A stretch of 64,000 nt of DNA from a virus (Duplodnaviria; Heunggongvirae; Uroviricota; Caudoviricetes), in the IMG/VR virus record IMGVR_UViG_3300015615_000629, positions 304,711 to 368,710 of that record. One strand, given 5' to 3'. Shown piece after piece: positions 16,876-42,379 of this stretch. The first letter of the stretch is position 1; each line of letters begins with the position of its first letter. Under the pieces are notes generated by a model. The model was given only the letters and a program-made list of their open reading frames with translations, did no database searches and was not told the origin of the DNA. Position numbers and translations under genes: made by a program.

Positions 16876-16975
16876 TAGGAGCAGAGGGAATCGAACCCCC
16901 ACTTGGAGCTAATCAGGACTCCACCTTACGGCCGAGATTATAAGTCTCGTGTGCTAACCTTTACACCATGCTCCC
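16876..16975 (-). tRNA. tRNA-Ile(UAU) with 32-nt variable region
   Basis: Acceptor GGGAGCA/TGCTCCT-A, anticodon arm CGAGA-CTTATAA-TCTCG, T arm GGGGG-TTCGATT-CCCTC. Confidence 0.85.
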
Positions 16976-27360: not shown

Positions 27361-27431
27361 AGCCCGCAGCCAGAATCGAACTGGCATCAGGAAGGTACGA
27401 ACTTCCCATTCTACCATTAAACTATACGGGC
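27361..27431 (-). tRNA. tRNA-Thr(CGU)
   Basis: Acceptor GCCCGTA/TGCGGGC, anticodon arm GGAAG-TTCGTAC-CTTCC, T loop TTCGATT. Confidence 0.92.
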
Positions 27432-28141
27432 AATTCTACTTCTTATTGTTTTCTTTCCAAACGTAATAACGCCCCGCAATCGCAGCACCAGCTAACGCAA
27501 GCCCAATAACTATAAAAATCAATCCACCAAATTTTCGAAAAAATGGGTTGTTGATTAATTCCTCTAATAAGGTTAATTTCCCCATCTCAATTCTCCTTCT
27601 TCGGAACCTGAATCACCAACACCCAACGATTTAAACGCTCTTCCGAAGTTTTGCCATTAGGATCGCCCTGTAACATCTCCACACAGCAACTTAAACCCCT
27701 GGCAATGTCCAATTGTGCCTGCGCCCGCCGAACCGCTGCCTTACATTTTCTTTCCAAATCCGGAGATAAAGGCTTGCCATCAAGTCCATTCACATCACCA
27801 GTTATCTCAATGTCACCAACAGATGGTAACTGCTTTAATAATTCATTTCTCTGAGATAACCACTCAGCCGCCCGATCTTCACATTCGCTGGTTCGCTCAC
27901 TCTGTTCTTTTATAAGTCTTTCGTAGACAACGACCTCTTTTTCCATCACCCCAACAGCAGCAACACTTTCTTCCGCTGTCTCTTTATACTCAACAGCATC
28001 CACATATTGCTTGATATTAAAAAGAATCGAAGCCGCCAAAACAATCCCAAGGAATGCTTTCATTTTTTAATCGCCCATCCAACTAAGAATAAACTAATGG
28101 CGTATACCAAAACAACAAATATAAGTAAAGCGTAAACCAAC

Positions 28142-29311
28142 TTAAACCATTTCATACTGCAATTGACGATCAACCATTCGCAGAACCTTCTTTGTAACGT
28201 CTACTGGCTGCTCTGTCAATCGTAATCCCGCCACCAATTCATCCGATATGCCACTATATTCACTACTTCTGGCTTCCTTAACAAATCTCATGTCCCTTAT
28301 CGGATAAATATTGTTCAACCTAGTCGAGGTCAATATGCCATTTGTAAACATGTTCATATGTTCATTAGTTACAACATTATAAAATGTGGTTTTTTCATGC
28401 ACAATTTTCTTGTTTACTATCTTTACTTTGCCATTTCTTGTATATGTTGTAGTTCCAATAGGTGAACTCATCATATTAGTAAACATACCCTTTTCAATAT
28501 TGAAAATACTATGACCCTTGCCATCGTCAATAGTTCCCAACGACGAACCGTCACTAAATTTAACCAAAGCATAAGAAAGTCTAGTAAATGGCTTCATAAT
28601 CCAAATTGGTTTGGCTTTATCAAGTCTGGCAGTGTCAAAGTTCCAAACAAGTAAGGTATCTGAATAATCTACATTTTCAATATTCTTATAGCCATTTGGT
28701 AACGAAACCCTAGTGCCAGCCATTAAGCACAACCACGGATTTGGATCGGATTGAATTGCATTTCCATAAACCGTTCCATCTGCATTTATGGCATAGGCGG
28801 CAACCCATACAGGATTTGCCCCATCGGTTAAAGTAATGCCGTCTAAAGTAAAGGGAAGAGTAAGGGAGTCTTCATAGGAACCAGTAAACGGCGTAAACGC
28901 CATTGTCGATACATGATCACTTGTTGTCGGACTGTCCGTATTGGCAGCATAAACAAAACCATATTCTATTACGCTATCACCGCCATTGCCAATGGTTGCG
29001 GTCATATGTATATTAAGATTTTCGACTTCTAAAGAGTCTGTAGTGATTTCAAGTGTTGCAGCCGTTGCAGGAGCCGTATATAACTCCCATTCTGGAGCCT
29101 GCCCCGCTTCCACCAGACGCTTTAAATTGACAGCTTCCTGGTCGTAAAGAGTGACAATATCTCCATGCTTTCGAACGATAGATGGAGAACCACCCAATAA
29201 ACCTATTGAGGTAAAGGTAGATTTAGCCTGAGCAGCAATCTCGGCTTCCGCTGGAGATAAAAGATGACCTTCTGTGTCCTTGAGATTAATCCTAAATGTT
29301 AGTGAATACAT
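28142..29311 (-). CDS. Probable virion protein with beta-rich domain and C-terminal Hint domain
   Basis: CLMAGTRV...KNIENV...FYNVVTNEHMNMFTNGILTS; TATATA 5 nt upstream of the ATG. Confidence 0.7.
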   Translation of the reverse strand: MYSLTFRINLKDTEGHLLSPAEAEIAAQAKSTFTSIGLLGGSPSIVRKHGDIVTLYDQEAVNLKRLVEAGQAPEWELYTAPATAATLEITTDSLEVENLNIHMTATIGNGGDSVIEYGFVYAANTDSPTTSDHVSTMAFTPFTGSYEDSLTLPFTLDGITLTDGANPVWVAAYAINADGTVYGNAIQSDPNPWLCLMAGTRVSLPNGYKNIENVDYSDTLLVWNFDTARLDKAKPIWIMKPFTRLSYALVKFSDGSSLGTIDDGKGHSIFNIEKGMFTNMMSSPIGTTTYTRNGKVKIVNKKIVHEKTTFYNVVTNEHMNMFTNGILTSTRLNNIYPIRDMRFVKEARSSEYSGISDELVAGLRLTEQPVDVTKKVLRMVDRQLQYEMV

Positions 29312-29654
29312 TTAGATATATAGGTCAATCTTGACAATTTCCTAATTTACCAACAATTTTACCGCAATATGGGCATGGCCAACTTTCTACCATTTTAACC
29401 ATATCATCGTATGAAACACTAGTGCCCGACTTCCACTCCCTAGTATCGGTTTTCCCAATAACCCTTAAATGCCAAATTATAGTCTCATGCTTGGTAACAT
29501 TTGACGAAATAACCGCATCGTAGCCAAGATTTTTACATGTTTCTAACAGATTATATACAATATTCTTGTTTTCATCTGACAAAAGGATATCGCACGGAAA
29601 CTGCTTTTGCTTGGCAAGGTATTCGGGAAGTTTTTCTAAGAACGTCATAAAACG

Positions 29655-29683
29655 AGTATGACAAATTTGGGTGAAAAGATCAA
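29655..29683 (-). promoter_or_regulatory. Sigma70-like promoter, leaderless
   Basis: TTGATC-N17-CATACT, 6 nt before the ATG at 29648. Confidence 0.45.
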
Positions 29684-29847
29684 ATCCAATTGGAGTCGAT
29701 TACGTCATCTATGGATTTTGGTTTTCTATCTCTTTTTTCTTGAACATGTTCGCAAAATATGAACACAAAACCCATTAGACTAAAAAATACGCCAAGAAAT
29801 ACGATAGCTCCAACAACACAATCTAAAATTGACATTTGTTTGCCTTT

Positions 29848-30459
29848 TTATTCTATCACTTCCGCATCCCCTACACCAGGAATTTCCAAAATATCCGAAT
29901 ATTTTAAAATATCAGAAACCCTTAGTTTTCTAGCGTCAGAACGATATCTGGAATATTTAGAATATTTAATAAGGACAATAGGGGTCTTGCTAACAACTAT
30001 ATCAATGTAAAATGTTTGATTTTGTCCTATAGTAGATACCCTGAAAAGAGAACCAAATTCAGGTGAACTCAATAACCAAGGTGTCTTCATTATAGTAATC
30101 TCATTCGGTATCGCCTTTCTTACAACTAACTTAGTTCCTTTCTTGACCATTCTTCTATTGTTTTTTGCTTCCATCCAAATAGAAAAGTAATACATCTTAT
30201 CAGGGCTCAAAAAATATCCATGAACCATGTCTTCTTCAATAACGATATCATCAGGACATGTAATTACCATTCCAGATTTAATTGCATCTATCGCAAAAGC
30301 ATCCTCGTTATCGAATACAACATGCTTTTCAGTTGGTTCTTTCGCTGGTTCGACTTTGCTAATTAAGATGTTTTCTGTGAAAACAGGGGATTTTTCTGCG
30401 GTTTTGAACAAAACCAAGAATATACAGAAAATTCCAAGAAGGATTGCGGCGGCTTTCAT
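29848..30459 (-). CDS. Exported hypothetical protein (paralogue of 10522..11166)
   Basis: Signal anchor and shared motifs; TAAATA 5 nt upstream. Confidence 0.7.
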   Translation of the reverse strand: MKAAAILLGIFCIFLVLFKTAEKSPVFTENILISKVEPAKEPTEKHVVFDNEDAFAIDAIKSGMVITCPDDIVIEEDMVHGYFLSPDKMYYFSIWMEAKNNRRMVKKGTKLVVRKAIPNEITIMKTPWLLSSPEFGSLFRVSTIGQNQTFYIDIVVSKTPIVLIKYSKYSRYRSDARKLRVSDILKYSDILEIPGVGDAEVIE

Positions 30460-30780
30460 ATCTTTATTTACGGTCGAAAAGCATTATTATAATTAGGATT
30501 TTCTAAAGGATACCAGCGAATTTGACTGTCATTGTCCTTTTTAAGTTCGTCTAGACTTTTTTGCAATTCTAATATCTTTTTGTTTAGCTCTGCAATTTCC
30601 TTGTTAAGAGCCTCTTCTTTGCTTTTGTCGGGTTTGGGCTGGGTTTGTTGGATGCATGGCGGTTCAATCTTGTTGGGTTCTTCGGACTTATCTCGAAAAA
30701 AGAAAAGTGCTACAAAGAACACGACAGTTGCAAAAATAACCAAATACTCTTTCTTCATAGGAGTATTTAGGGTTATTAAG

Positions 30781-30864
30781 TTCGAGAGGCACGAATCGAA
30801 CGTGCGTAGGGTTTCCCCAGACTTGGTTCAAAGCCAAGCTGCCATACCAACATAGCACTCCGGA
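30781..30864 (-). tRNA. tRNA-Gln(UUG) with long variable arm
   Basis: U1-A72, anticodon arm CTTGG-CTTTGAA-CCAAG, V arm GGG-GAAA-CCC, T arm GCACG-TTCGATT-CGTGC; C3:C70 mismatch. Confidence 0.75.
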
Positions 30865-30868
30865 TCAA

Positions 30869-30942
30869 GGTGGCTGACGGGAATCGGACCCGCGTAAAAC
30901 CTCATTCACAGTGAGGCACCTGAACCAACACAGGACAGCCAC
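30869..30942 (-). tRNA. tRNA-His(GUG)
   Basis: Acceptor GTGGCTG/CAGCCAC-C73, anticodon arm CCTCA-CTGTGAA-TGAGG, T loop TCCGATT; G-1 not encoded. Confidence 0.85.
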
Positions 30943-30944
30943 AG

Positions 30945-31015
30945 CGATGACGACGGGAATCGGACCCGCGTTACAACTTAGACAGAGTTGCGTGTTACCA
31001 TTACACTACGTCACC
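30945..31015 (-). tRNA. tRNA-Asp(GUC)
   Basis: Acceptor GGTGACG/CGTCATC-G, anticodon arm CAACT-CTGTCTA-AGTTG (U37), T loop TCCGATT. Confidence 0.88.
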
Positions 31016-31203
31016 GTATTTCTTATTCCTTGTCACTGAAAACGTATTGACCGTTCTCTTCTGTTAACATAAACTTCTTTTTATCAAATCTTTCTTCCGG
31101 CAAATCTCCCATTACTCCCGAATGACCATGCACTACATATTCGTCTTCTGTTTCGGATAATGTTCTTAGATTTGAAAATACATGTGCCATATCTGATCCT
31201 CGT

Positions 31204-31968
31204 TTATTGATATACTTGTTTTAGATTTACGCTATAGCAATCTTCTGAATCCGAGTATTTCCAAGTTACATTTCCTTCCAAATCTTTTTTGACTATGGCG
31301 TATCTATCTCCTATTAATCCAGACAGCATTTCATTCGAAATTTGGGAAAGCAATAATCTTTGAAAGTGATCCTTTATGGCCCTTTCTGCATTTATAACAT
31401 CGCGATACATGAATTGATCATCAATTACGTCAAATAAATCACAAATTTTAGAAAGTGTTTGCTTAACAATATCCATATTAAAAGTACCAAAAGAAAGAAG
31501 TTTATTATCTATTTGGTCCTTAAATTCCCTTATACTCATACTTCCGTTTACTTTACAAAACATCTCTTGTATTTCATCTATAATTTTTTTGCACTTCTCA
31601 ACTTCTATATCGCTTAAATTAGATATTTCTACTAACTTCTTAAAGGTATCGCAATTAGTACCTGCAATTCTTACTACAAGGCGAACAAGTTCCCGCAGGC
31701 TCATTTGATACCATTCTATTGTAACAACAGTTCGAGGAACATCTGGACATTTTGTATGCATGTCCTTAAATGCTTCAATGTTTTTACATTTGTAAATGGC
31801 ATCACAAAAGGTATTTCTTATTCTTCCCAAAAGAAAGTCCCTAATGTCTTGTTTTGTATAATGCCGATGCGACCCAACCATAGTGAAATTTAGAGTACCA
31901 TTATCTGTCAAATTCCGCACGGTTCCAGGTGTTACGCCAAGTATTTTTGCAACTTCTTTAGTCTTCAT
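31204..31968 (-). CDS. Excisionase/MerR-type HTH protein
   Basis: MKTKEVAKILGVTPGTVRNLTDNGTL...VGSHRHY. Confidence 0.7.
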   Translation of the reverse strand: MKTKEVAKILGVTPGTVRNLTDNGTLNFTMVGSHRHYTKQDIRDFLLGRIRNTFCDAIYKCKNIEAFKDMHTKCPDVPRTVVTIEWYQMSLRELVRLVVRIAGTNCDTFKKLVEISNLSDIEVEKCKKIIDEIQEMFCKVNGSMSIREFKDQIDNKLLSFGTFNMDIVKQTLSKICDLFDVIDDQFMYRDVINAERAIKDHFQRLLLSQISNEMLSGLIGDRYAIVKKDLEGNVTWKYSDSEDCYSVNLKQVYQ

Positions 31969-32075
31969 ATCTTTATATAGTTAAATTTTATATGAAACAG
32001 CACAAAAAGAAGAATTTGTTTTGGTGCTTCCGTTCTTTTCTATCTGCAAGGCTTCTATATATTAGCAGCCCCACG

Positions 32076-32127
32076 ACCCGTGACAAGGACCGGTAGCCCA
32101 AACGGCAGCCTTGTCACGGGTTTTTTT
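32076..32127 (+). terminator. Intrinsic terminator or 3' end of a small RNA
   Basis: 13-bp perfect stem ACCCGTGACAAGG/CCTTGTCACGGGT followed by a T-run. Confidence 0.65.
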
Positions 32128-32129
32128 AG

Positions 32130-32201
32130 CTCCGGTGCCTGGGTACGATCCAGGAACAGTTGAGTAACAATCAACCGTGATACCAGTTTCACCACACCGG
32201 A
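32130..32201 (-). tRNA. tRNA-Asn(GUU)
   Basis: Acceptor TCCGGTG/CACCGGA-G, anticodon arm GTTGA-TTGTTAC-TCAAC, T loop ATCGTAC. Confidence 0.88.
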
Positions 32202-32266
32202 ATAGTTTTATTTAAACTTTTTCAACAGGAGTCGAAATTATTCGAGTCCAGTTACTATATAAGAGT

Positions 32267-32884
32267 ATGCCTTATGTAGCAACGTGTACTTGTTGTGGCA
32301 TAGAATTTACTAGGCCAACAAGATGTCATCCTAAACATCATCCAAAATGGAAAGGAAAACATTTTTGTAGTGTTAAGTGTCGCCACTTGTCCCAAGTTAC
32401 CTCTATCACTCAGCCATGCGGCTGGTGTAATAAATCGGTAACAAGAAACCTAGCAGAAGCAAAAGGTTCTGCTTCTGGCCTTTTATTTTGCAATAATTCT
32501 TGTTCAGCATCTTACAGCAATACCAAACGTAGAAAATCCAGACGTTCCAAATGTGAGGTAATGCTGTTTGATTTATTGAGCAAAGAATTTCCAAATGTTA
32601 CAATGTTGCCAAATGATAAAACCATGTTAGACGGGCTAGAAGTGGACATTGCAATTCCGGATATCCAACTCGCTATTGAATGGAACGGAATAGTTCATTT
32701 CAAACCAATTTATGGTCAGTCGAAACTTGATCGTATCCAAAATATAGACAAACAAAAACTTGAAATTGCTGAAAACAAGGATATAAATCTAATTGTAATT
32801 CCCGACCTAGTTTCCAAGGACGAATACGTAAAGGAAGCATTCCACAAAATAAGTTCAATCATACGTGAGTTGTTAAAAAACTAA
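32267..32884 (+). CDS. Cys-rich repeats plus Vsr/DUF559-like PD-(D/E)XK nuclease; probable free-standing homing endonuclease
   Basis: CxxC...FCSxxC repeats, then LEVDIAIPDIQLAIEWNGIVH...D..K. Confidence 0.7.
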   Translation: MPYVATCTCCGIEFTRPTRCHPKHHPKWKGKHFCSVKCRHLSQVTSITQPCGWCNKSVTRNLAEAKGSASGLLFCNNSCSASYSNTKRRKSRRSKCEVMLFDLLSKEFPNVTMLPNDKTMLDGLEVDIAIPDIQLAIEWNGIVHFKPIYGQSKLDRIQNIDKQKLEIAENKDINLIVIPDLVSKDEYVKEAFHKISSIIRELLKN

Positions 32885-32885
32885 G

Positions 32886-32959
32886 AGGGCAAGGCCGGAA
32901 TCGAACCGATGCGACATTTTTGTTAACAGCAAAATGCTCTACCACTGAGCTACTCGCCC
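32886..32959 (-). tRNA. Second tRNA with GUU anticodon (Asn), atypical
   Basis: Acceptor GGGCGAG/CTTGCCC with U73, anticodon arm TTTTG-CTGTTAA-CAAAA, weak T stem. Confidence 0.7.
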
Positions 32960-33486
32960 TTAAATTTTATCCATTCCTCGACAACATCCTTGTAAAGTTT
33001 CTTTCTCCCCTCTCTTTTATTTTTTACAAATTTAAGCAAGTCTTTGAAAAGAGATAAACTTTTCTCCCAATTTCCCTTTTTATACTCGATTGCTTCTAAA
33101 ATGAAGAAATTAATTGGTTTCGCATCGTAGTATTTCAGCCAGTCTGAGTCGTTCCCTGTAGACTTTTCTAAAAGCCATCTTACAGATTCTGCAAAATCTT
33201 CTCCTATATCACCTTCACAATTACCGCTGGCTCGACTAACCTCGTGTACGCCATGCCCCAGTTCATGAAAGATTGCATTAAATTCACAATCATTATAAAC
33301 AACTACATCCCCATACTTTTCATTTATACCTATCCATAACGCACTGCCTTCGGCAGTGTCCAATGTAAAATTTCTTATTTCTTTAAAAGGGATATCATTT
33401 ACTGTGAAAAAATTATAGGCATACCTTATTTTATTTTCAAAATGTGCCACCACTCTTACTTCGCTCATGGCAAGCGTTGCTCGCAT
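32950..33486 (-). CDS. HExxH zinc metallopeptidase-like protein
   Basis: IFHELGHGVHE...EDFAES. Confidence 0.55.
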   Translation of the reverse strand: MRATLAMSEVRVVAHFENKIRYAYNFFTVNDIPFKEIRNFTLDTAEGSALWIGINEKYGDVVVYNDCEFNAIFHELGHGVHEVSRASGNCEGDIGEDFAESVRWLLEKSTGNDSDWLKYYDAKPINFFILEAIEYKKGNWEKSLSLFKDLLKFVKNKREGRKKLYKDVVEEWIKFKGE

Positions 33487-33693
33487 CCCTTGTTTCCTCC
33501 AAAATATTCGTCTAAATATTCAATTTCTTTGGCCAGTGCTAGTGCCTTTGCTTCGGCCACTAATTTCTCCATTTCGGCAATTTCTTCGGGAGTATATCGC
33601 CTTTCTCGATCTTCTTTCAAATATTGATTAAAAGCATCGATATCCGCTTGCGTCGAAGTTGGACCTAAATGCATAATTTCATCCTTATTCAAG

Positions 33694-33764
33694 TGACCCC
33701 GGTGGTGCTTGCAACCACATCGTCCTGGTTAAGAGCCAAGAGCTTTTCGTTAAGCTACGGAGTC
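33694..33764 (-). tRNA. tRNA-Lys(CUU), atypical D and T loops
   Basis: Acceptor GACTCCG/CGGGGTC-A, anticodon arm CTTGG-CTCTTAA-CCAGG, T loop TGCAAGC, no GG in the D loop. Confidence 0.8.
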
Positions 33765-33768
33765 AAAG

Positions 33769-33842
33769 GGCCGACGACTGGGTTCGCACCAGCATAAACT
33801 TGTTTACAAAACAAGCGCCTTACTAAATCGAGCCACGTCGGC
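33769..33842 (-). tRNA. tRNA-Thr(UGU)
   Basis: Acceptor GCCGACG/CGTCGGC, anticodon arm CTTGT-TTTGTAA-ACAAG, T loop TGCGAAC. Confidence 0.85.
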
Positions 33843-33858
33843 AATTTTCTTATATTTT

Positions 33859-33948
33859 GCCCCGCCTTCACCCAGCGAGGCAGAACGGCCAATTTTGTAT
33901 ACAGGATCGTTAGTCCAGAGGCCGTAGGTTGTCGCCCTTTCGATGGCG
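33859..33948 (-). ncRNA. Unknown structured RNA in the tRNA array
   Basis: GC-rich intergenic segment with three consecutive stems. Confidence 0.4.
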
Positions 33949-33949
33949 T

Positions 33950-34210
33950 TTATTCGTTGTCTTTCCTACGTTGGAAATCTTCTATTATTTCAGATAACAA
34001 AGGCAAACGTCTAAAAGACGACAAACGCTTAAATTCTGTAATTTCATGTGGGCCAATAAACTCTTTCTCAGCCTCTAGCCAAAATTGCAAATCTAAGTTC
34101 TGTGGGCACCCAGCATCAAGCCATTTGAAATAAGCAGACTTAGAAATTAATTCTTTTTTATAATACGAAATATTTTCATCTGCAATGCTCATCGGGTGGA
34201 GGTTACTCAT
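33950..34210 (-). CDS. DUF2934-like protein
   Basis: ISKSAYFKWLDAGCPQNLDLQFWLEAEKE. Confidence 0.7.
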   Translation of the reverse strand: MSNLHPMSIADENISYYKKELISKSAYFKWLDAGCPQNLDLQFWLEAEKEFIGPHEITEFKRLSSFRRLPLLSEIIEDFQRRKDNE

Positions 34211-34520
34211 ATCTTGTTTTAATGTCGCCTAGATAGGTTGTGCCGTGTTCTTTGTAAACTTTGTATATAGAGTAATATTCTTCACCCCGATACATTAATT
34301 CATCAATCAAATACTGTTTATCTTCTGGTAGGACGACATGTGGTATGTGAGCATAGCCTACAGTGCCATGTTGTCCGCAATTACACTTCCAATGCCATCC
34401 TAATGGATTACTATAATTAACCATTCCGGATAGTTTAAGTTCTTTATTGCCGCAAGATTTACAGGTTTGTTCGTCTAAGAAATCTTGCATTGCTTGACGT
34501 TCAGGGTCTTCATTCATAAG

Positions 34521-34594
34521 CACGGATGTAGGAAATCGAATCCTAAAAGCGAGAGTTTTGGAGGCTCTCCGTCGTACCCACCGACTGCATCCGT
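34521..34594 (-). tRNA. tRNA-Trp(CCA)
   Basis: Acceptor ACGGATG/CATCCGT-G73, loop CT-CCA-AA, T arm TAGGA-TTCGATT-TCCTA. Confidence 0.85.
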
Positions 34595-34598
34595 AAAG

Positions 34599-34667
34599 TA
34601 TCCCGTAAAAGAGTCGAACTTTTCATCCGAGTTTCGTAAACTCAGTGCCAATTCCGTTGGACGGGAC
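34599..34667 (-). tRNA. tRNA-Arg(ACG), compact 69 nt
   Basis: Acceptor GTCCCGT/ACGGGAT-A, anticodon arm TGAGT-TTACGAA-ACTCG, T arm AAAAG-TTCGACT-CTTTT. Confidence 0.8.
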
Positions 34668-34683
34668 AAATTTTATAAGCCTT

Positions 34684-35319
34684 TTAGACTGGAAGCGTCC
34701 TTACTATGTCTTCTGCAAAATAGTCATCTCTTAATACTGTCAGAACTTCGCCTAGCCAGTTTGTGCCTTTCCAAGGCTTGCCATTTTTGGCGTCTTTGGC
34801 ATCGATTCCGATTCCCCATATTGTATCATATGGAGATGCTTCAACTAACATTGTTCCGGCAGTTTTCCGCAACACTTCCAACATATCTGGATTTTGAGTA
34901 AATTTGTAATAATTGCCTGTGAAAACTATGCTTCGTGCATTTGCATCCCATCTTCCCTTATCGAAGCCTTTTACCGTTCTGCCAAGTGCTTTTTGTTCAC
35001 GTGGCGATTTGGCTTCCATTATCTTTTTGAATGTATCTTTATCTCCGAAGAACAGGGCTTTTTGAGCCATCATATACTGTTCGGCGGTGTTATAGGTAAT
35101 TTTGTTTACTGTAAATTTGGAATGACTCCATTGGGAGAAAGGGGCTTCGTTCCAAAAGTAAGTAAATTCAGTGTACTTTTTCATTGTTTTTGGTTTCCGT
35201 GTAATTTCGTAGGAACCATCTGGTAAAATTTTATATTCAAGGTCATAAAATGATGGTTTTGCCGAAATATATTCGGATTCAATGTTTAGTTCGATTTCTT
35301 TATCCATAAGTGCGACCAC
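34684..35319 (-). CDS. NADAR (YbiA-like) family protein
   Basis: FSQW, TAEQYMMAQKALFFGD, KFTQN, VEASPYDTIWGIG and NWLGEVL motifs. Confidence 0.93.
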   Translation of the reverse strand: MVALMDKEIELNIESEYISAKPSFYDLEYKILPDGSYEITRKPKTMKKYTEFTYFWNEAPFSQWSHSKFTVNKITYNTAEQYMMAQKALFFGDKDTFKKIMEAKSPREQKALGRTVKGFDKGRWDANARSIVFTGNYYKFTQNPDMLEVLRKTAGTMLVEASPYDTIWGIGIDAKDAKNGKPWKGTNWLGEVLTVLRDDYFAEDIVRTLPV

Positions 35320-35384
35320 TGAGAATTGAACTCAGTCTATTTGCTTGGGAAGCAAGTGTGCGAAGCCGTTAACACTTTGGTCGC
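35311..35384 (-). tRNA. tRNA-Gly(CCC)
   Basis: Acceptor GCGACCA/TGGTCGC-A, loop TT-CCC-AA, T loop TTCAATT. Confidence 0.85.
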
Positions 35385-35388
35385 GGAG

Positions 35389-35459
35389 AGCGGGTAGGGA
35401 GAATCGAACTCCCATAACCAGTTTGGAAAACTGGAGCTTTACCATTAAGCAATACCCGC
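35389..35459 (-). tRNA. tRNA-Gly(UCC)
   Basis: Acceptor GCGGGTA/TACCCGC-U73, anticodon arm CCAGT-TTTCCAA-ACTGG. Confidence 0.93.
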
Positions 35460-35464
35460 TTAGT

Positions 35465-35977
35465 CTAGATATTTTTAAAGTAATGCGAAAATTTCGGTAA
35501 TAATTGATTCAAGGATTGAATATCGTTTTGTTTAAATGCTCCTTCAGCGTCTTTTACAAGATTTCTCCAATATAAAGCATTGTATAACTCGGTAGGAACA
35601 TAAAGAAATCCTTGTGTGTCTTCTTTAACTGGTGTATTGGGACCGCCATCTTTTATATTTCCTGCTGGTTTTACACCAACCGCAAATCGCAACATAATAG
35701 ATTTGTTTCTTTTTTCATAATCCACATATTTTAACCAACCGTCTTTTAATGGCCCATTAAGTTCTTGAATTAGTCTTTTTTTGACTGTTTCTACCATATT
35801 TTTATATGTAGTCATTTCTTCGGGGGAGATATTTTCGAATCTACCATTTGCTCGCATGGGATGTTTCCCATCTGCTCCAAGAGTATTCCAACGACTGTGC
35901 AATCCTCGTAAGATATTTCTCTGCGTAGAGTAATCGAATTGTTCCTGTTCTAACAGGTAATCAATGAATGTTTTCAT
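35465..35977 (-). CDS. Candidate capsid-internal protein
   Basis: N-terminus MKTFIDYLLEQE resembles the T4 capsid-targeting sequence; TATATA 4 nt upstream. Confidence 0.55.
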   Translation of the reverse strand: MKTFIDYLLEQEQFDYSTQRNILRGLHSRWNTLGADGKHPMRANGRFENISPEEMTTYKNMVETVKKRLIQELNGPLKDGWLKYVDYEKRNKSIMLRFAVGVKPAGNIKDGGPNTPVKEDTQGFLYVPTELYNALYWRNLVKDAEGAFKQNDIQSLNQLLPKFSHYFKNI

Positions 35978-35992
35978 ACGTTATATACCCGC

Positions 35993-36211
35993 TTAATCAT
36001 AGAATCCAAGTTCTTGTGCCTCGGATACTAATTGATTTAATATTTCAAATGATCTTTTACGATTTTCTTTTTTAAAGTTCATTAACTCGTCTGAGTCAAC
36101 TTGCACTTTCAACAAACCTTTTCCCACAATTTCCTTTAAGAAATATTCGTGGGAAACATTCATTAATTCTGCGGCTTGGTCAGTTGTAAGTTGTTGTGTC
36201 ATTGGAATCAC
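35993..36211 (-). CDS. Excisionase-like HTH protein (type seen as a PIN-toxin partner)
   Basis: LTTDQAAELMNVS...L.QLVSEAQELGFYD. Confidence 0.6.
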   Translation of the reverse strand: MIPMTQQLTTDQAAELMNVSHEYFLKEIVGKGLLKVQVDSDELMNFKKENRKRSFEILNQLVSEAQELGFYD

Positions 36212-36226
36212 GTTTCGTTGTGTAAG

Positions 36227-36300
36227 TATCCCCGGCTGGATTCAAACCAGCAACCTGCGGATTAGAAGTCCGCTGCTCTATTCAGTTGAGCTACGAGGAC
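36227..36300 (-). tRNA. tRNA-Arg(UCU)
   Basis: Acceptor GTCCTCG/CGGGGAT-A, anticodon arm GCGGA-CTTCTAA-TCCGC; A19 with U56 (compensatory). Confidence 0.92.
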
Positions 36301-36304
36301 ATAG

Positions 36305-36377
36305 TAGCCGGTATCCGAGTCGAGCGGATTCTTCATCGTTCGAAGCGATGCGTGCTAGTCCCTCACACTCACCGGCC
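36305..36377 (-). tRNA. tRNA-Arg(UCG)
   Basis: Acceptor GGCCGGT/ACCGGCT-A, anticodon arm CATCG-CTTCGAA-CGATG, T loop CTCGACT. Confidence 0.82.
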
Positions 36378-36382
36378 AAAGT

Positions 36383-36874
36383 TTAACTAACCATTGCTTC
36401 TTTCCAATATTGGAGATTATTTTCGCTTATTTCTCCGTTGCAGTATTTTGCCAAGTCCAGAAGAGCATTATAGAACAAACTGGCTTCTTCTGCAAACCCT
36501 AATATGGTAAGGCATTTCAATACACGTGTGATTCGTAAGTAATTATGGTCGCCTGAGAATACCCAACTGCTATTTTTTCGTAGTTTGACTAATTTGCCAT
36601 TGTAGGCAACTGCAAATCCCCAAAATTTGAGCATTCGGTAGAATGCTTCTAGCATCTTTTCTCTTAATGCTGGATCGCTTTTAAATAATTGTATTTGTTC
36701 GGCGTCGAGTAAGGGTGCATCTGGGTTGAAGTTACTTGGTTCTGTAAGTGGAAACAGCCATTGGATATAACTATGGTCTGCTTCAAGTCGGTGGTCTTTG
36801 GAGGCTATAATTTCATCAATTTTATAGCCTTCATCGTTACCGATTTTACTACGGTAAAATTCTACTGCTTGCAT
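36383..36874 (-). CDS. Opioid growth factor receptor (OGFr_N) domain protein
   Basis: LEADHSYIQWLFPL.EPS.FNPDAP...ML.FWG...HNYLRITRVLKCL. Confidence 0.9.
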   Translation of the reverse strand: MQAVEFYRSKIGNDEGYKIDEIIASKDHRLEADHSYIQWLFPLTEPSNFNPDAPLLDAEQIQLFKSDPALREKMLEAFYRMLKFWGFAVAYNGKLVKLRKNSSWVFSGDHNYLRITRVLKCLTILGFAEEASLFYNALLDLAKYCNGEISENNLQYWKEAMVS

Positions 36875-36892
36875 TTTTAATCCTTATTTAAA

Positions 36893-36963
36893 TCGACCGC
36901 ATAGGAGTCGAACCTATGTTTACTACTCATCAGATAGTCGTCCTACCGTTGAACGAGCGGTCG
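36893..36963 (-). tRNA. tRNA-Ile(GAU)
   Basis: Acceptor CGACCGC/GCGGTCG-A, anticodon arm ACTAT-CTGATGA-GTAGT (G37). Confidence 0.85.
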
Positions 36964-36979
36964 GGTTATTATAACGGAG

Positions 36980-37050
36980 TAGGCCGCCTGAGAATCGAAC
37001 TCAGATCTAAAAATTAAAAGTTTTTTATTCTCCCATTGAACTAGCGACCC
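36980..37050 (-). tRNA. tRNA-Lys(UUU)
   Basis: Acceptor GGGTCGC/GCGGCCT-A, anticodon arm AAAAA-CTTTTAA-TTTTT. Confidence 0.88.
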
Positions 37051-37054
37051 AAAA

Positions 37055-37133
37055 AGGCATCGTGCCGGATCGAACGGCTTGGAATCATCTTTGCAGGATG
37101 ACGGGCCGCCACGACCCATTAACCTACGATGCC
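37055..37133 (-). tRNA. tRNA-Cys(GCA), enlarged D region
   Basis: Acceptor GGCATCG/CGATGCC-U73, anticodon arm TCATC-CTGCAAA-GATGA. Confidence 0.82.
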
Positions 37134-37148
37134 ATTGGCTAAATTAAA

Positions 37149-37161
37149 TTGTCAAAGAACA
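37149..37161 (-). promoter_or_regulatory. boxA-like (NusB/NusE) antitermination site
   Basis: TGTTCTTTGACAA directly after the first post-terminator tRNA; matches rrn boxA GYTCTTTRANA. Confidence 0.6.
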
Positions 37162-37163
37162 AG

Positions 37164-37235
37164 GGCCTTCGGTGAGAATCGAACTCACTACCGCTTCCTT
37201 ACCAAGGAAGAACTCTACCGATGAGCTACGAAGGC
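37164..37235 (-). tRNA. tRNA-Thr(GGU)
   Basis: Acceptor GCCTTCG/CGAAGGC, anticodon arm CTTCC-TTGGTAA-GGAAG, T loop TTCGATT. Confidence 0.94.
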
Positions 37236-37253
37236 AAATCACTTTTCCAAACG

Positions 37254-37288
37254 AAAAAACCCGCTTCAGGTTTGAACCTGAGCGGGCT
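37254..37288 (-). terminator. Intrinsic terminator (attenuator) inside the tRNA operon
   Basis: GCCCGCTCAGG-TTCAAA-CCTGAAGCGGG followed by TTTTTT. Confidence 0.85.
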
Positions 37289-37342
37289 TTAAGTGATTCA
37301 GCCGACCCAGGTTTTATCCTGAGCCGTGTCTTGTTGACTGGT

Positions 37343-37432
37343 TCAGGACGAGATGATGGTGCATCCTTGGCGCGTATTAATATCGCACCAATTATGCTGT
37401 TTATCTCGTCTTGTACCAATCATGAGTGACAT
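37343..37432 (-). CDS. Leader peptide, 29 aa: MSLMIGTRRDKQHNWCDINTRQGCTIISS
   Basis: Hand-translated. The stop codon overlaps the first pairing segment, and codon content mirrors the downstream tRNAs. Confidence 0.8.
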   Translation of the reverse strand: MSLMIGTRRDKQHNWCDINTRQGCTIISS

Positions 37433-37465
37433 TTTAGTTTCTTCTACTTTCGTTCTAACTGTAAG

Positions 37466-37537
37466 TGGCGGGAGAAGGAATCGCACCTCCGACCTTGAGT
37501 TTATGAGACTCACGAGCTACTACTGCTCCACCCCGCT
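37466..37537 (-). tRNA. Initiator-like tRNA-Met(CAU)
   Basis: A1:C72 mismatch, fMet-type GCGGGG-TG-GAGC...GCTC scaffold, loop CT-CAT-AA; anticodon stem lacks the three G-C pairs. Confidence 0.85.
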
Positions 37538-37546
37538 ATTGTGTAT

Positions 37547-37621
37547 TGGTGGCAGGGGAGGGCCTTGCACCCCCAACCTTCGGGTTTAACCCCGACGCTC
37601 TATTTTTTGAGCTACCCCACC
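37547..37621 (-). ncRNA. tRNA-like RNA with a 6-nt anticodon loop and encoded CCA
   Basis: GGTGGGG/CCCTGCC-ACCA, GCTC/GAGC D stem, TCGGG-GTTAAA-CCCGA, T loop TGCAAGG. Confidence 0.75.
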
Positions 37622-37628
37622 AATTAAG

Positions 37629-37710
37629 CGGCCAGGGATGGTAACGAGCCACCGACCTCCGCTACTTGCCATTGCTGACTTTCGCGGTGCTCTCACTGAG
37701 CTACCTAGCC
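37629..37710 (-). ncRNA. tRNA-like RNA with a GNRA-capped stem in place of the anticodon loop
   Basis: GGCTAGG/CCTGGCC-G, D stem, CCGC-GAAA-GTCA-GCAA-TGGC-AAGTA-GCGG, AGGTC, T arm GGTGG-CTCGTTA-CCATC. Confidence 0.75.
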
Positions 37711-37750
37711 ATGTTCTTCTATATAGAAGATTCAAATCATTTTTTCTTCA

Positions 37751-37874
37751 CGCACTTAGTAAAACCTCCTTTTGGTCAGAGTTACTAATTGCGGCCGGAA
37801 TTGAGCTATTCCTTTCGGACTTACTCAAGGATTACCGGCCCTTGTGCTGTTTCGCTCTTTTCTTGCCGTCAACT
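37751..37874 (-). ncRNA. Structured 5' leader or ncRNA of the tRNA operon
   Basis: Two adjacent long interrupted hairpins downstream of a promoter. Confidence 0.5.
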
Positions 37875-37879
37875 CCCCT

Positions 37880-37907
37880 ACTATAGCGTGATTTTTTGGG
37901 TTGTCAA
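37880..37907 (-). promoter_or_regulatory. Sigma70-like promoter of the tRNA operon
   Basis: TTGACA-N16-TATAGT. Confidence 0.75.
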
Positions 37908-38858
37908 GTGTTCGGCAAGAAAATTTTCAAACCTGTTTTTCTGCCCTGTATGCTTTGGCTAGAGCCTTGTTCTTTTTACGTGTTGTGACTCGACGTAAGT
38001 GGCGGGCTCGCCCCTTATGGGATAATTTCATGATTGATCCTTATTCGGCAATTCTTCATTCTCGGAACAAAACCACTTCCAGGCATCTTCAAATTTCAAA
38101 TTATCTACGCCTCCTCCAGGCGGATTTCTCAGGCCGATATTTGCAAAGCAGCTGCCGTAACAGGTTAGATAGAAAACTAACTGTTTTCGGCCACGATACC
38201 ACATGCCAACAGCCATATCTTGGTCTGCTGGGCCAAAATTATTTGGTACAGGTTCCCAAATTTCGAATTTCTTGGAAGAATCTGGCGGGTTTGATTTTAC
38301 GCCTTGGCGTGGTCATCGTCGCCGACAAAAGCTGTATTTTCTCGTTGAACTTCAACGGCAGAAGCACCAGCGGCTTCGGCAAAAAGGCAAAAGTCACCAA
38401 AGCCATCGTCTGGGACGCTGCCGGTGATGGTTCCGATTTCTTTTTGAACATCGGTCAAAACAAGCCCTTTAGATATAAGTTCGGCGGCTACAAGTCCTAT
38501 ATCTTTGCCGGATTCAACCAAAATCATCACGTTAGTCATTTGTTCCCTTTGGTAAATCTTCAAAAGCGGTTTTTGGATTTAGTGTTCGCCAGCAAGCATC
38601 ACTAATCCACATATCGATGCCTTGGGTGTTTTTACAAAGCTGGTGCCAGCAATCGTGGCACATAATTGCTGTGCGAATATCACATGTTTTGAACTTGGGT
38701 TTTCTGTCCTCATACCGAGGGGATTGTATGCATTCTATGGACAGAAGTGGTTCAATGGCTATTTCTTGGGTTATTCCGTCGGTTTCTTCGGAATAGGGAT
38801 AAATTTCCAGATTATTTTGGTCTTTTTCACAATGGCAAGAGAGGCATTTCACGTAGTT

Positions 38859-39128: not shown

Positions 39129-39617
39129 TTATGTCCTGTTTAATCTATCGATTTTTTGTTGAATATCTGTTTCGTTTATCGGTTGAAATTTTCTCCAATG
39201 TGGTTCGATACGGTTGTACTTTTTAATACCGTCGGTGGGGGAGAAATATGTAGTCCAAAATATTTGGATGCATGACTCTACTAATTTACTAGGAGTGTCT
39301 GCTACCATTGTTCTTCCGAGGCAAATATTGCTGAAAAACGATCCACTTAGGCCCGAATATCTATAATATTTTCCGTTCTCAATCATACACATTTTAAATG
39401 CAGCGTTTGCGAAACGGAATTGTTTGCCTTTGAATGGAGCGTATATGTGCGAGAAGTTTATAACAAAAGCGTGGGGCGGCAATGATATCAACTGACTTCC
39501 GTATTTGGTGTAATTATGTTGATCGACATAGCTACAGATGGGTATTGTCCTTTGCATTTCTCTACAATTTACTTGTGCGTAGTAATTGGAATTATTAGCA
39601 AAATATTCAATGTTCAT
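39129..39617 (-). CDS. Prok-E2_D-like paralogue 5
   Basis: MQRTI...SLPPHAF...NICLG...FWTTYF. Confidence 0.55.
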   Translation of the reverse strand: MNIEYFANNSNYYAQVNCREMQRTIPICSYVDQHNYTKYGSQLISLPPHAFVINFSHIYAPFKGKQFRFANAAFKMCMIENGKYYRYSGLSGSFFSNICLGRTMVADTPSKLVESCIQIFWTTYFSPTDGIKKYNRIEPHWRKFQPINETDIQQKIDRLNRT

Positions 39618-40110
39618 TTTTATTTAGTTGGTTAAGGATTTCTTGGATATTTTGTTCTGTAGTTGGTCGTTTATTTCTCCAAAAAGGATTGATTATATCA
39701 TCGGGCTGGATTGAATAAACTGGGCCAAAAAAGTAAGTTGTCCAGAATCGTTCCACTGCCGCGTTTACAATATCGGTTGGGGTGGCTCCGGAAACAACGT
39801 CTCCGAGGCAAACAAATTGAAAATCTCTAGCCTCGACGAATCCGGAGCAATTAAAATACTCTTCATTAATTTTCATACACATCCTAAATCCGTTTTCCAT
39901 AAATCGGAACAATGGTGTTTCGCCAATATCTCTTCCCGGCGTAAAATTAACAATAAATGTGTGATCTGGCAGTGTGATTAGTCGTGGTTCTGGTGTGTTA
40001 TCTGGCAGACCGCGTGAGACCAGTTGGTGTACAAGAATAGTTCTTTGCGTTGCTTTGAAAGTGACTTCTGCGGTAAAATTCAAGGCTGTTTGAAAGTATT
40101 CTACATTCAT
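39607..40110 (-). CDS. Prok-E2_D-like paralogue 6
   Basis: TQRTI...TLPDHTF...FVCLG...FWTTYF; tandem duplicate of paralogue 5. Confidence 0.55.
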   Translation of the reverse strand: MNVEYFQTALNFTAEVTFKATQRTILVHQLVSRGLPDNTPEPRLITLPDHTFIVNFTPGRDIGETPLFRFMENGFRMCMKINEEYFNCSGFVEARDFQFVCLGDVVSGATPTDIVNAAVERFWTTYFFGPVYSIQPDDIINPFWRNKRPTTEQNIQEILNQLNKNEH

Positions 40111-40612
40111 TCTAAGTTTTCTAAAAAGGCGAGAAGTATAGCCTTGCTAGATGCTTCGTAATCACCAAACTTTACACCGTGTCCGTAATCAATAATACTG
40201 AATTCTCGGAAATCAGGTTTTGTTCCATCTCCGGAAGGTGTAAAAAAGGACAATGGGACGACAACTCTATGCAGATTTCCGGTCCATAAAGTTAAGCCAA
40301 TTTCGTTAATCCTACCGCAAATAAACAATTCAGCCTTATTGTTGGCTTGAATAGCTTCGACAAGTTCTTCTGGGGGAGAGATGCTATTTTATTCATGGGT
40401 TAATTAGTGTTGCTCCTTCCATTGCGTTTCTGAGATTATTATAGGTTCTTTTATCCCACTCATTGTCAAATTCTGGTTCTTCTGATAAAAAATAAACTTT
40501 TATTTCTGGGTCTTTAATTAGATCTGGCAGGTTGTGTGGGCCGAAGCAACCAAGGCGGCTTTTTTGTTCTACAAAGCCACAGCAGCCTATGTATTTAAGA
40601 ACGTCCATAATT

Positions 40613-41128
40613 TCACTTGTTTCTCGATTGTGAACGACGATCCATTTTTTTAGCGTTTGATTCATAGATTTCTTTAACAAAGGATTTTAGTTCTTTAATA
40701 GAAGAATTGGTTAATTTTGGCACGTGGATCGGGCGTCCATGCGTTTTATGATCAATGTATCTTCCCTCGGTTCCTTCTTGATAAGGGACAGACCAAAACA
40801 TTTCCATAGCGGTTTTAATTACTTTTTCAACGGTTCCGCTAATAGATTCGTGATTCATATCAACGCAAACACCGCCTTCTCCATTATGGTTTCCAAGTGA
40901 AAGTGCTGAGTCGTAGTATTGTGAGCCGTACTTTAAGAGGAATTGAAAAGGAAAACTACCGGTGATTGTTATTCTTGTTTTAGATAAAGGACAAATTCGA
41001 AACACGAAAGCGTGTTCAGGGAATGACAAATAATGAATTTTTCTTCCAAAGACTATATTTCTTTTGGTTGGTGGGCAAATCACAGCGAACATTTTCTGCG
41101 ATTTATTTATTTTTATTGAGTTTTTCAT
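40613..41128 (-). CDS. Prok-E2_D-like paralogue 7
   Basis: PPTKRNI...SFPEHAF...NHNGEGGVC...FWSVPY. Confidence 0.55.
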   Translation of the reverse strand: MKNSIKINKSQKMFAVICPPTKRNIVFGRKIHYLSFPEHAFVFRICPLSKTRITITGSFPFQFLLKYGSQYYDSALSLGNHNGEGGVCVDMNHESISGTVEKVIKTAMEMFWSVPYQEGTEGRYIDHKTHGRPIHVPKLTNSSIKELKSFVKEIYESNAKKMDRRSQSRNK

Positions 41129-41597
41129 CGATTTCTTTAACAAAGGATTTTAGTTCCTTAATAGAAGATTCTTCAAACTCAGGCAGATGTACTAAGTCGC
41201 CATAGGCATAATTTTCTTTTACATATGGGCCTTCCCTCGACCAGTATGCGGTAGTCCAAAACTTGTCTATACAGGTTTTGATTGCTTCTTCAACTTCTCC
41301 ACGAATCGATTCGTGGCCTAAGCTAATGCAGACGCCGCCTTGGCCATTTCTATTTGCCGTTGAAATTGGTGCATCGTAATATTTGTTGTACTTTATCAAA
41401 ACGAATTTAAACGGATAATCTCCCGTTAGGGTTATCTTGTTGGGGCCTATAGGACGTATCGGAAATACGAACATGTGTTCTGGGAACGACAAATAATAGG
41501 CAATTGATTCGTCATATCTGATAAAGACTATATTTCTTTTGGTTGGCGGGAACACCACGGCAACCAATTTACGTTCTTTGTTTATCTTGATGTTCAT
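41103..41597 (-). CDS. Prok-E2_D-like paralogue 8
   Basis: PPTKRNI...SFPEHMF...API..NRNGQGGVC...FWTTAY. Confidence 0.55.
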   Translation of the reverse strand: MNIKINKERKLVAVVFPPTKRNIVFIRYDESIAYYLSFPEHMFVFPIRPIGPNKITLTGDYPFKFVLIKYNKYYDAPISTANRNGQGGVCISLGHESIRGEVEEAIKTCIDKFWTTAYWSREGPYVKENYAYGDLVHLPEFEESSIKELKSFVKEIDEKLNKNK

Positions 41598-42085
41598 AGA
41601 CTAGCAATAAATTCTTTTAAGTCTTCGATGGATGATTCTGTGAATTCAGGAAGATTTCCTTCTACCATTGGAAAATGTTCACATATTAATTCACCGGTAT
41701 TTCGTATCCAATGTGTTAGGAAGGAGCTTTCTTCACCCGTTGGCCATCTTACGGTCCAGAATTTTTCTATAACTAGATTAATTGTTTTCTCTAATTCCCC
41801 TTGAAAAGAGCGGTGGTCATAATCAATACATACATCTCCTTCTCTCGTGCGGCTGGCTGCTGAAATGGGTGCGACATAAAATTTATCTTGTTCTTTTAGT
41901 ACAAATTTAATTGGGTAAAACCCTCTAACTACTAGATGTTTTTCGGAGGTAAGGATTATAGGGAATATGAATAAATGTTCGGGAAATCTTAAGTTATATG
42001 CTTTGTGATCAAAAAACACGGTTCGCCGTCTCGGTGGAAACGCGACTGCAAACATCTTGTGTTGTTTGTTTATCTTAATATTCAT
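41594..42085 (-). CDS. Prok-E2_D-like paralogue 9
   Basis: PPRRRTV...RFPEHLF...API...EGDVC...FWTVRW; start MNIKINK. Confidence 0.55.
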   Translation of the reverse strand: MNIKINKQHKMFAVAFPPRRRTVFFDHKAYNLRFPEHLFIFPIILTSEKHLVVRGFYPIKFVLKEQDKFYVAPISAASRTREGDVCIDYDHRSFQGELEKTINLVIEKFWTVRWPTGEESSFLTHWIRNTGELICEHFPMVEGNLPEFTESSIEDLKEFIASL

Positions 42086-42379
42086 TTTCTGCTTTAATGG
42101 GTTCACGTTCGATGATCGTGAAACTTTCGCCATGTATTCCGTGGTGCATAAGGATTCTTATTCTTTCATTGCCTCTTTCGATTGTGAAATCAACCCAATC
42201 ATGTTGATCCCATCCTGGGTTTATATTGCCCCAATTTATCCGAGCCCCTTCAGGAAGGTAATGGAATTGCGGAGGCTTCGGTTCTGTTTTTGGTGTAGTC
42301 TTGTAAAACAAGGTGATTGGCAAAAAGGCTACAACAATCGCCACACAACACAGAAAAAACAAGCCGCCTCTGTTCATTT

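Follow-up and report, generated by a model that had tools for sequence, protein, structure and literature searches.

Two tRNA-shaped RNA genes without a usable anticodon at the head of a giant-phage tRNA array

Two adjacent genes in a giant-phage genome fold as complete tRNA cloverleaves and lack a usable anticodon. In one, element B, a long hairpin capped by a GCAA tetraloop occupies the place of the anticodon arm. In the other, element A, the anticodon loop is shortened to six nucleotides. What is new here is that B belongs to a family with members in two other large viral contigs, among which the helices persist through compensatory base changes. Judged by these comparisons, B is a maintained non-coding RNA gene and not a decayed tRNA. 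With moderate confidence, we propose that A and B both encode stable, processed, tRNA-shaped RNAs that mimic tRNAs without decoding.

Large phages have tRNA genes by the dozen, of which annotation software discards or mislabels those that break the rules. We analysed a 64,000-nt stretch of DNA, hereafter the window, which spans positions 304711–368710 of a 572,167-bp viral record. The record has direct terminal repeats, is rated complete and has a GC content of 0.40. An earlier reading of the window from its sequence, hereafter the first-pass annotation, had described both elements.

The B-A-Met operon

Genome-wide, 41 sequences match the Rfam tRNA model, and ARAGORN at a lowered threshold reports about 50 tRNA-type genes, nearly all on the minus strand. 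A and B form the upstream end of a minus-strand tRNA array covering window positions 27361–37710. Along that strand the order is promoter, leader, B, a 7-nt spacer, A, a 9-nt spacer, tRNA-Met(CAU) and a terminator-like hairpin (Table 1), which bears out the first-pass placement of the pair at the head of an operon, upstream of a terminator or attenuator. The tRNA-Met has a 1:72 mismatch (A1 x C72), a T loop of UGCGAUU and a D loop without GG, and it lacks the three G-C pairs that mark an initiator anticodon stem.

The B-A-Met transcript likely starts at the putative promoter listed in Table 1. The first-pass annotation had instead pointed to a TATATA motif 9 nt before B. The motif is present (37720–37725), but it is a much weaker promoter candidate: it forms the middle of a perfectly palindromic stretch, and the site matching 11 of 12 consensus positions lies 170 nt upstream. 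The leader between this site and B comprises a GAAA-capped hairpin, a second hairpin that sequesters AAGGAGG, and the AU-rich palindrome itself (37715–37730). It also contains, on the minus strand, an AGGAGG (37770–37765) followed 9 nt on by a seven-codon ORF, GTG CGT GAA GAA AAA ATG ATT TGA (37755–37732), whose Shine-Dalgarno sequence is sequestered in the second hairpin.

The neighbouring genes indicate no partner protein for A or B, and the plus-strand ORFs across the A/B region have no Pfam match. Upstream of the operon lie five tandem paralogues of about 165–179 aa (39129–42133, minus), also without a Pfam match; an alignment-based scan of IMG/VR found no relatives of this family. Anchoring the search on a neighbouring OGFr_N-like protein retrieved a single, tRNA-free locus from IMG/VR and 37 loci from metagenomes at no more than 59% identity, none of them with A or B. 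Neither ARAGORN nor Rfam found a tmRNA in the window or the genome.

Table 1. Features of the B-A-Met operon and of the four tandem tRNA-shaped genes at locus L092 of another viral contig
Feature	Sequence	Coordinates	Strand	Remarks
Putative sigma-70-type promoter, TTGACA-16 nt-TATAGT	window	37880-37907	minus	11/12 consensus positions; top site in 37100-38300
Structured leader, ~166 nt	window	37711-37876	minus	MFE -44 kcal/mol, z -3.3, 0/200 shuffles as stable
Element B, 82 nt	window	37629-37710	minus	cloverleaf by MFE fold
Element A, 75 nt	window	37547-37621	minus	cloverleaf by MFE fold; Rfam tRNA 43.6 bits
tRNA-Met(CAU)	window	37465-37537	minus	third gene of the predicted transcript; Rfam tRNA 54.9 bits
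Intrinsic-terminator-like hairpin and U tract	window	37257-37273	minus	would end or attenuate the B-A-Met transcript ahead of the following tRNA block
L092-1	L092	5655-5540	minus	extended anticodon arm, UUCG cap, encoded ACCA
L092-2 (B-like)	L092	5536-5462	minus	9-bp arm capped CA-GCAA-UG
L092-3 (A-like)	L092	5448-5375	minus	UCGGG-CAACAGG-CCCGA, no U33, D loop without GG, trailer A-CUU
L092-4	L092	5279-5196	minus	second arm with UUCG cap

Structure of the two elements and their tRNA background

B was described by the first-pass annotation as having intact acceptor, D and T stems and an extended, GNRA-capped anticodon arm, and the minus-strand MFE fold agrees. The acceptor is GGCUAGG/CCUGGCC, the D arm GCUC-AGUGA-GAGC and the T arm GGUGG-CUCGUUA-CCAUC. 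The anticodon arm (37659–37687, 29 nt) reads CCGC, an internal loop GAAA, the hairpin GUCA-GCAA-UGGC with its tetraloop at 37672–37675, an internal loop AAGUA, and GCGG. A 21-nt structured segment thus separates the two stem halves, and there is no anticodon loop. The RNA ends in discriminator G73 and is trailed by CUU. Its D loop (AGUGA) and T loop (CUCGUUA) lack the canonical G18G19/U55C56 elbow. ARAGORN does not call B as a tRNA, even with introns of 0–60 nt allowed, the Rfam tRNA model does not match it, and at E ≤ 10 no Rfam family does.

A also conforms to its earlier description on the minus strand, with intact stems, an initiator-type anticodon stem (UCGGG/CCCGA), a 6-nt loop GUUAAA (37585–37590) and an encoded ACCA (37547–37550). 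The common claim that neither RNA has a usable anticodon stands, given the 6-nt loop of A and the arm without an anticodon loop in B. The encoded CCA had been singled out as the only one here. It is indeed unique among 50 minus-strand tRNA-type genes, but it carries little weight, as chance alone gives 1/64 per gene. A scores 43.6 bits with the Rfam tRNA model (RF00005), whose gathering score is 29, in an alignment that deletes one position of the anticodon loop; at E ≤ 10 it matches nothing else in Rfam. ARAGORN reports it at the lowered threshold only, with a 2-base ‘anticodon’. Bacterial and viral RNA models score well under their gathering thresholds in this region (YrlA / Y RNA, RF02553, 15.2 against 69 bits; Tymo_tRNA-like, RF00233, 14.4 against 40). 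The YrlA match straddles the T arm of B and the D arm of A, and we rejected it as an artefact of generic tRNA-likeness.

A carries one hallmark of initiator tRNAs, the three consecutive G-C pairs closing the anticodon stem. The others are absent: there is no CAU, G1-C72 is paired, and 11:24 is C-G (pyrimidine 11, purine 24). Among the loci recovered with a pattern from A's stems, the top covariance-model (R1) match to A is a viral tRNA-Met(CAU) at L095 2905–2981 (59.4 bits). The two share the same D arm, the same anticodon stem followed by AGGU, an unchanged variable region, and the same 3' acceptor strand except for its last base; the viral tRNA-Met has a 1:72 mismatch where A has the G1-C72 pair. 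Their loops, GUUAAA in A and CUCAUAA in the tRNA-Met, differ by C32G, C34U and the loss of U36. This close match indicates that A derives from an initiator-type tRNA-Met lineage, and it would have kept the three G-C pairs while losing CAU and U36. A is less secure than B. It has intact pairing, one positional analogue and a body like that of the adjacent, apparently working tRNAs.

Every stem position of A and B is paired in the MFE cloverleaves. Single-sequence folding scores are modest (z −2.4 for A, −1.8 for B), so the case against chance rests on homologues with compensatory changes. Aligned globally with the 114 tRNAs of this genome and of a 340-kb relative (G001), the elements reach at best 49 of 70 identical positions; neither is therefore a recent duplicate of a tRNA in these two genomes.

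The tRNA genes of this genome follow a 3'-end convention. N73 is followed by CUU in 26 of 50 tRNA-type genes, where base composition would predict about 2% (a rough estimate), and most of the other 24 have CU or UU after the discriminator. The CUU convention holds also in G005, the contig containing L092, while CCA is encoded in nearly all tRNAs of L096, a locus in a further contig, G006. The B-like genes obey the convention of their own genome: B ends in G73-CUU, and its L096 homologue in G73-CCA, as nearly all L096 tRNAs do. CUU after the discriminator is probably a 3'-processing signal.

The elbow of A, with a D loop (AAAAAAUA) without GG, a T loop UGCAAGG and hence no canonical G18G19/U55C56 contact, is not peculiar to it. 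The combination of a UGC T loop and a GG-less D loop is common to the Met, Lys-CUU and Thr-UGU tRNAs of the array (33693–33842, 37465–37621). It also occurs in the His tRNA of G005 and in the His, Ala, Gly-GCC and one Thr-CGU tRNA of G006 (L096, L097). The Met tRNA of G006 has the UGC T loop and retains the D-loop GG; L096 contains a tRNA-Met(CAU) at 3456–3535 (+) with T loop UGCAAUU. The two loop variants seem to co-vary as a substitute for the G18G19/U55C56 contact. With their non-canonical elbows, A and B could be poorer targets for RNase P, RNase Z and other proteins that recognise this part of a tRNA.

Other genes in these genomes also depart from the standard form. Two solitary cloverleaves lie between protein genes on the minus strand of this genome, both lacking an anticodon and both with an N73-CUU trailer. 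The one at genome positions 105719–105801 has canonical D and T loops and a 10-bp arm that contains a bulge of 3 nt and ends in a loop of 5 nt; the one at 1121–1191 has a 6-nt loop, GGAUAU. Two suppressor-type tRNAs are present, CUA (genome 30802–30894, minus; 93 nt with a long variable arm) and UCA (genome 286239–286310, minus). Within the window, a 100-nt tRNA at 16876–16975 (minus) has the loop CUUAUAA (UAU, Ile) and an insert of about 29 nt in the variable region; it scores 57.7 bits in Rfam and was missed by standard ARAGORN. G001 opens its Met operon, again behind a GAACATG motif, with an irregular tRNA(CAU) whose anticodon stem has 8 bp and whose T loop is AUCAUCC (L016 6476–6548, minus). 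Two more of its genes are tRNA-shaped but irregular: one of 127 nt, interrupted centrally by a large insert (L016 4372–4498, minus), and a solitary cloverleaf with a 9-nt loop (L015 573–650, minus).

B-like genes in two other viral contigs

We provisionally define the B family by a tRNA body that lacks an anticodon, has a D loop of 5–6 nt starting with AG, and bears an anticodon arm of at least nine stacked layers with CA-GCAA-UG at its tip. It has only three members, B itself, L092 5462–5536 and L096 4012–4096, and the two homologues were recovered by a pattern derived from B.

L092 was first recovered with a pattern comprising the 3' half of A's D stem and its anticodon stem around a free loop of 5–9 nt. 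The locus lies in a viral contig of 84.5 kb (G005), which has a completeness rating of 40% and a GC content of 0.46. Its minus strand contains an ORF-free stretch of about 1.2 kb with a structured leader, four tandem tRNA-shaped genes (Table 1) and a terminator; ARAGORN calls zero tRNAs in the 10.7-kb locus. The pattern did not include the B-like gene, yet this gene precedes the A-like gene by 13 nt, in the B-then-A order seen in the window. The likeness of the A-like gene to A is partly imposed by the pattern. Its loop has seven nucleotides and lacks U33, and because A-type loops differ in both length and sequence between the two genes, no conserved functional site is visible.

A second pattern, the D arm plus CAGCAATG, recovered L092 again and one new locus, L096. 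This locus belongs to a 148.6-kb contig (G006) with a GC content of 0.58 and has 18 ARAGORN tRNAs in 11 kb. Its B-like gene is the top match of the B covariance model (R2) in L096 (46.5 bits, E 2e-9). The D arm, GCUC-AGCGA-GAGC, is one D-loop base apart from that of B (AGUGA against AGCGA), and the T stem (GGUGG/CCAUC) and discriminator G73 are identical. The arm consists of 6 bp, a C/C mismatch, 7 bp and GCAA, and its folding z is −4.3, with 0 of 200 shuffles as stable. Beside it lies an irregular cloverleaf (4105–4187, +) with a hairpin in the D region, which ARAGORN calls Arg-GCG at low stringency.

Hand parses of the three B-like genes, which rebuild the genomic sequence exactly, retain all helices with one C/A mismatch overall. 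Five acceptor pairs (2:71, 3:70, 4:69, 5:68, 6:67) and one D pair (13:22) show double compensatory changes. In the outer and inner arm stems most pairs vary among the members, and the cap CA-GCAA-UG is invariant. The T loops are not conserved, nor is arm length, which ranges from 9 bp to about 14 stacked layers. G005 and G006 each have one detected ORF in common with this genome, at 45–51% identity; this low identity, together with the differing GC contents, indicates that the conservation of B spans real divergence. The first-pass annotation had taken preserved pairing as a sign of maintenance rather than decay, and for B these compensatory changes in two other contigs bear that out. It had also reasoned that homologues with ordinary 7-nt anticodon loops would mark the pair as pseudogenes or assembly errors; no such homologues appeared, for the B-like genes have no anticodon loop at all and the 7-nt loop of the A-like gene (CAACAGG) lacks U33. 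A long structured leader, ORF-free in L092 and L096, precedes the B-like gene in all three loci, and the leaders show no obvious mutual similarity on reading.

One feature of B is not found in its homologues. The GAAA/AAGUA internal loop places GAA opposite AGUA, in the orientation of a sarcin-ricin or loop E (bulged-G) motif. The corresponding position is a C/C mismatch in L096 and continuous helix in L092. A degenerate pattern around this loop, GAAA...GNRA...AAGUA, gave 33 IMG/VR matches, none B-like by covariance model, a failure which argues that the S-turn-like loop is not a family trait. In GTDB genomes the same pattern gave one match, a chance hit in coding sequence that we discarded. 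The sarcin-ricin-like loop of B would thus be lineage-specific or a coincidence.

Further searches added no relatives. The exact A pattern had no match in IMG/VR, and the exact B pattern had a single chance match within a coding region, which we set aside. No homologue of A or B was found in INPHARED or GTDB genomes, and blastn against 50,697 phage records returned generic tRNA matches only. The nearest available relative, G001, was reached via SbcC (39% identical) and has 64 tRNA matches; it contains no detectable A or B, the sequence there that matches A best is a regular tRNA-Lys(UUU), and it has zero ORFs in common with the window's array region. Custom cloverleaf scanners gave mostly false positives, and their sole clear long-arm matches were B and the known L092 and L096 elements.

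Proposed role, alternatives and known parallels

How might tRNA-shaped RNAs act without decoding? We suppose that A and B are transcribed together with the initiator-like tRNA-Met from the strong sigma-70-type promoter and that they would be excised by ordinary tRNA maturation, through RNase P, RNase Z or exonucleases, and the CCA-adding enzyme. The tRNA-like acceptor/T-arm body would then act without an anticodon. In B, the rigid GCAA-capped helix in place of the anticodon arm would bar both codon reading and anticodon-dependent synthetases. Both would most likely act by competing for some protein or site that senses the shape of a tRNA, such as a host tRNA-targeting toxin or nuclease, or a processing enzyme. 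For A, the target might instead be the 30S P site, or factors that recognise the initiator stem. Such initiator-stem competition would fit the adjacent tRNA-Met, which has the 1:72 mismatch but lacks the three G-C pairs.

The first-pass annotation had proposed three roles, which fare differently. A decoy function against tRNA-directed toxins is possible. Inhibition of RelA is a weak idea, because RelA activation requires codon-matched A-site binding. The role of aminoacyl donor is also weak: A and B have neither G3:U70 nor a long variable arm, and so lack identity elements for synthetases that ignore the anticodon.

In a more ambitious version of the mimic reading, B and A would be a dedicated module of two parts with which giant phages counter defence or take over translation, and would define a new class of tRNA-scaffolded effector RNA. 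The anticodon-less three-G-C stem of A would bait initiator-tRNA nucleases of the VapC type, or compete at the 30S P site or for IF3, while the phage provides an initiator-like tRNA-Met without that stem. B would present an acceptor end on a non-decoding body and absorb toxins that modify or cut the acceptor/CCA end. We regard this as an unlikely, speculative extension.

The main alternative to mimicry is that the cloverleaves act in cis as ‘tRNA punctuation’, guiding RNase P and RNase Z cuts that free the leader and define where the tRNA-Met precursor begins, after which the excised pieces have no function. Several observations would suit such a role: each of the three B-like genes stands behind a long structured leader (strongly folded here, z −3.3), the anticodon-less cloverleaves at 105719–105801 and 1121–1191 stand alone between protein genes, and the trailers fit the genome's tRNA convention. 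Yet a processing signal needs neither the invariant CA-GCAA-UG cap nor the long arm, two to four tandem elements exceed the need, nearby true tRNAs could serve equally, and the three leaders have no obvious similarity; we give punctuation a low probability. The same holds for decay, in which A would be a copy of an initiator-type tRNA-Met minus one loop base and B a tRNA with a short insertion, both mere passengers. Zero stem mismatches in either element, B-like helices kept by compensatory changes in three diverged phages, a repeated B-then-A order in L092 and the lack of a recent parent tRNA all speak against it. They outweigh what decay would explain well, namely that A departs from the phage tRNA-Met(CAU) chiefly by two substituted bases and one lost base in the loop, that A-type loops are not conserved, and that G001, INPHARED and GTDB genomes hold no homologue.

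Could either element decode after all? The loop of A consists of short U and A runs, in which an assembly homopolymer error might hide a 7-nt loop, or A might decode unusually with six nucleotides. A restored GUUUAAA would give anticodon UUA, an ochre suppressor, and GUUAAAA would give UAA, for Leu; suppressor-type CUA and UCA tRNAs exist in this genome, and the body of A resembles the working tRNAs of the array. However, long ORFs in the window are intact (813, 656 and 409 aa), which indicates that indel errors are infrequent, and a second gene with a 6-nt loop (1121–1191, GGAUAU) has no homopolymer longer than two bases. Since, moreover, the L092 A-like gene has a 7-nt loop without U33 and G32 would be unusual, a decoding A seems quite improbable. 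Least probable of all is that B is an intron-containing tRNA spliced to a normal one, whether like the ‘enigmatic introns’ of Lak megaphages or through an archaeal bulge-helix-bulge. The extra length of B does lie in the anticodon arm, and Lak megaphage tRNAs bear short conserved insertions (PMC6784885). But no single excision gives a 5-bp stem and 7-nt loop with U33 and R37 in any of the three B-like genes, the unpaired stretches of B are opposed and not staggered across a 4-bp helix, as a bulge-helix-bulge would be, and ARAGORN with introns allowed does not call B. The same excision test on the solitary element at 105719–105801 yielded no stem-loop with both U33 and purine 37.

The persistence of B across diverged phages with an invariant apical loop suggests that giant phages maintain tRNA-shaped RNAs for a non-decoding purpose. 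Phage-host tRNA conflict has so far been known mainly through cleavage-resistant phage tRNAs. If A and B are decoys for tRNA-targeting toxins or competitors in initiation, they would add a new, RNA-based layer to this conflict.

Several known systems resemble the pair in part. The T4 tRNA region yields RNA C and RNA D, small non-tRNA RNAs of unknown role made within a phage tRNA cluster from the same transcripts (PMC3014915). A and B share that setting; unlike RNA C and RNA D, with which we compare them by description alone, they are full cloverleaves with defined replacements in the anticodon arm. Lak megaphages, whose tRNAs contain ‘enigmatic introns’ (Devoto et al. 2019, PMC6784885), are likewise giant phages with a large tRNA set, in which some tRNAs have conserved extra sequence in the anticodon region. 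Lak tRNAs, however, have an assignable anticodon once the insert is removed, whereas B-like genes have none by any excision, and the loop of A is shortened. The Bacillus cereus pseudo-tRNA tRNA-Other is non-decoding with a regulatory role (PMC3399842). As proposed for A and B, it keeps a tRNA body, for processing and stability, in an RNA outside translation; it differs in its 7-nt anticodon loop and chromosomal location, and we claim no homology. A bulk survey of IMG/VR highlighted five tRNA-like RNA candidates overlapping ARAGORN calls (PMC10690425). It concerns the same source and general class, and the part of it available to us describes no long-arm GCAA-capped or initiator-stem family. 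In the literature covered, which is incomplete for journals, neither a long-arm GCAA-capped family nor an anticodon-less initiator-stem family came to light.

Initiator tRNA-fMet itself has in common with A the anticodon stem with three G-C pairs; its other defining features fail in A. B also recalls a laboratory design. In the engineered ‘tRNA scaffold’, RNA inserts are expressed within the anticodon stem of a tRNA. The arm of B resembles such a payload, with no homology claimed, and the B family may be a natural counterpart of the engineered scaffold and a concrete target for covariance-model surveys.
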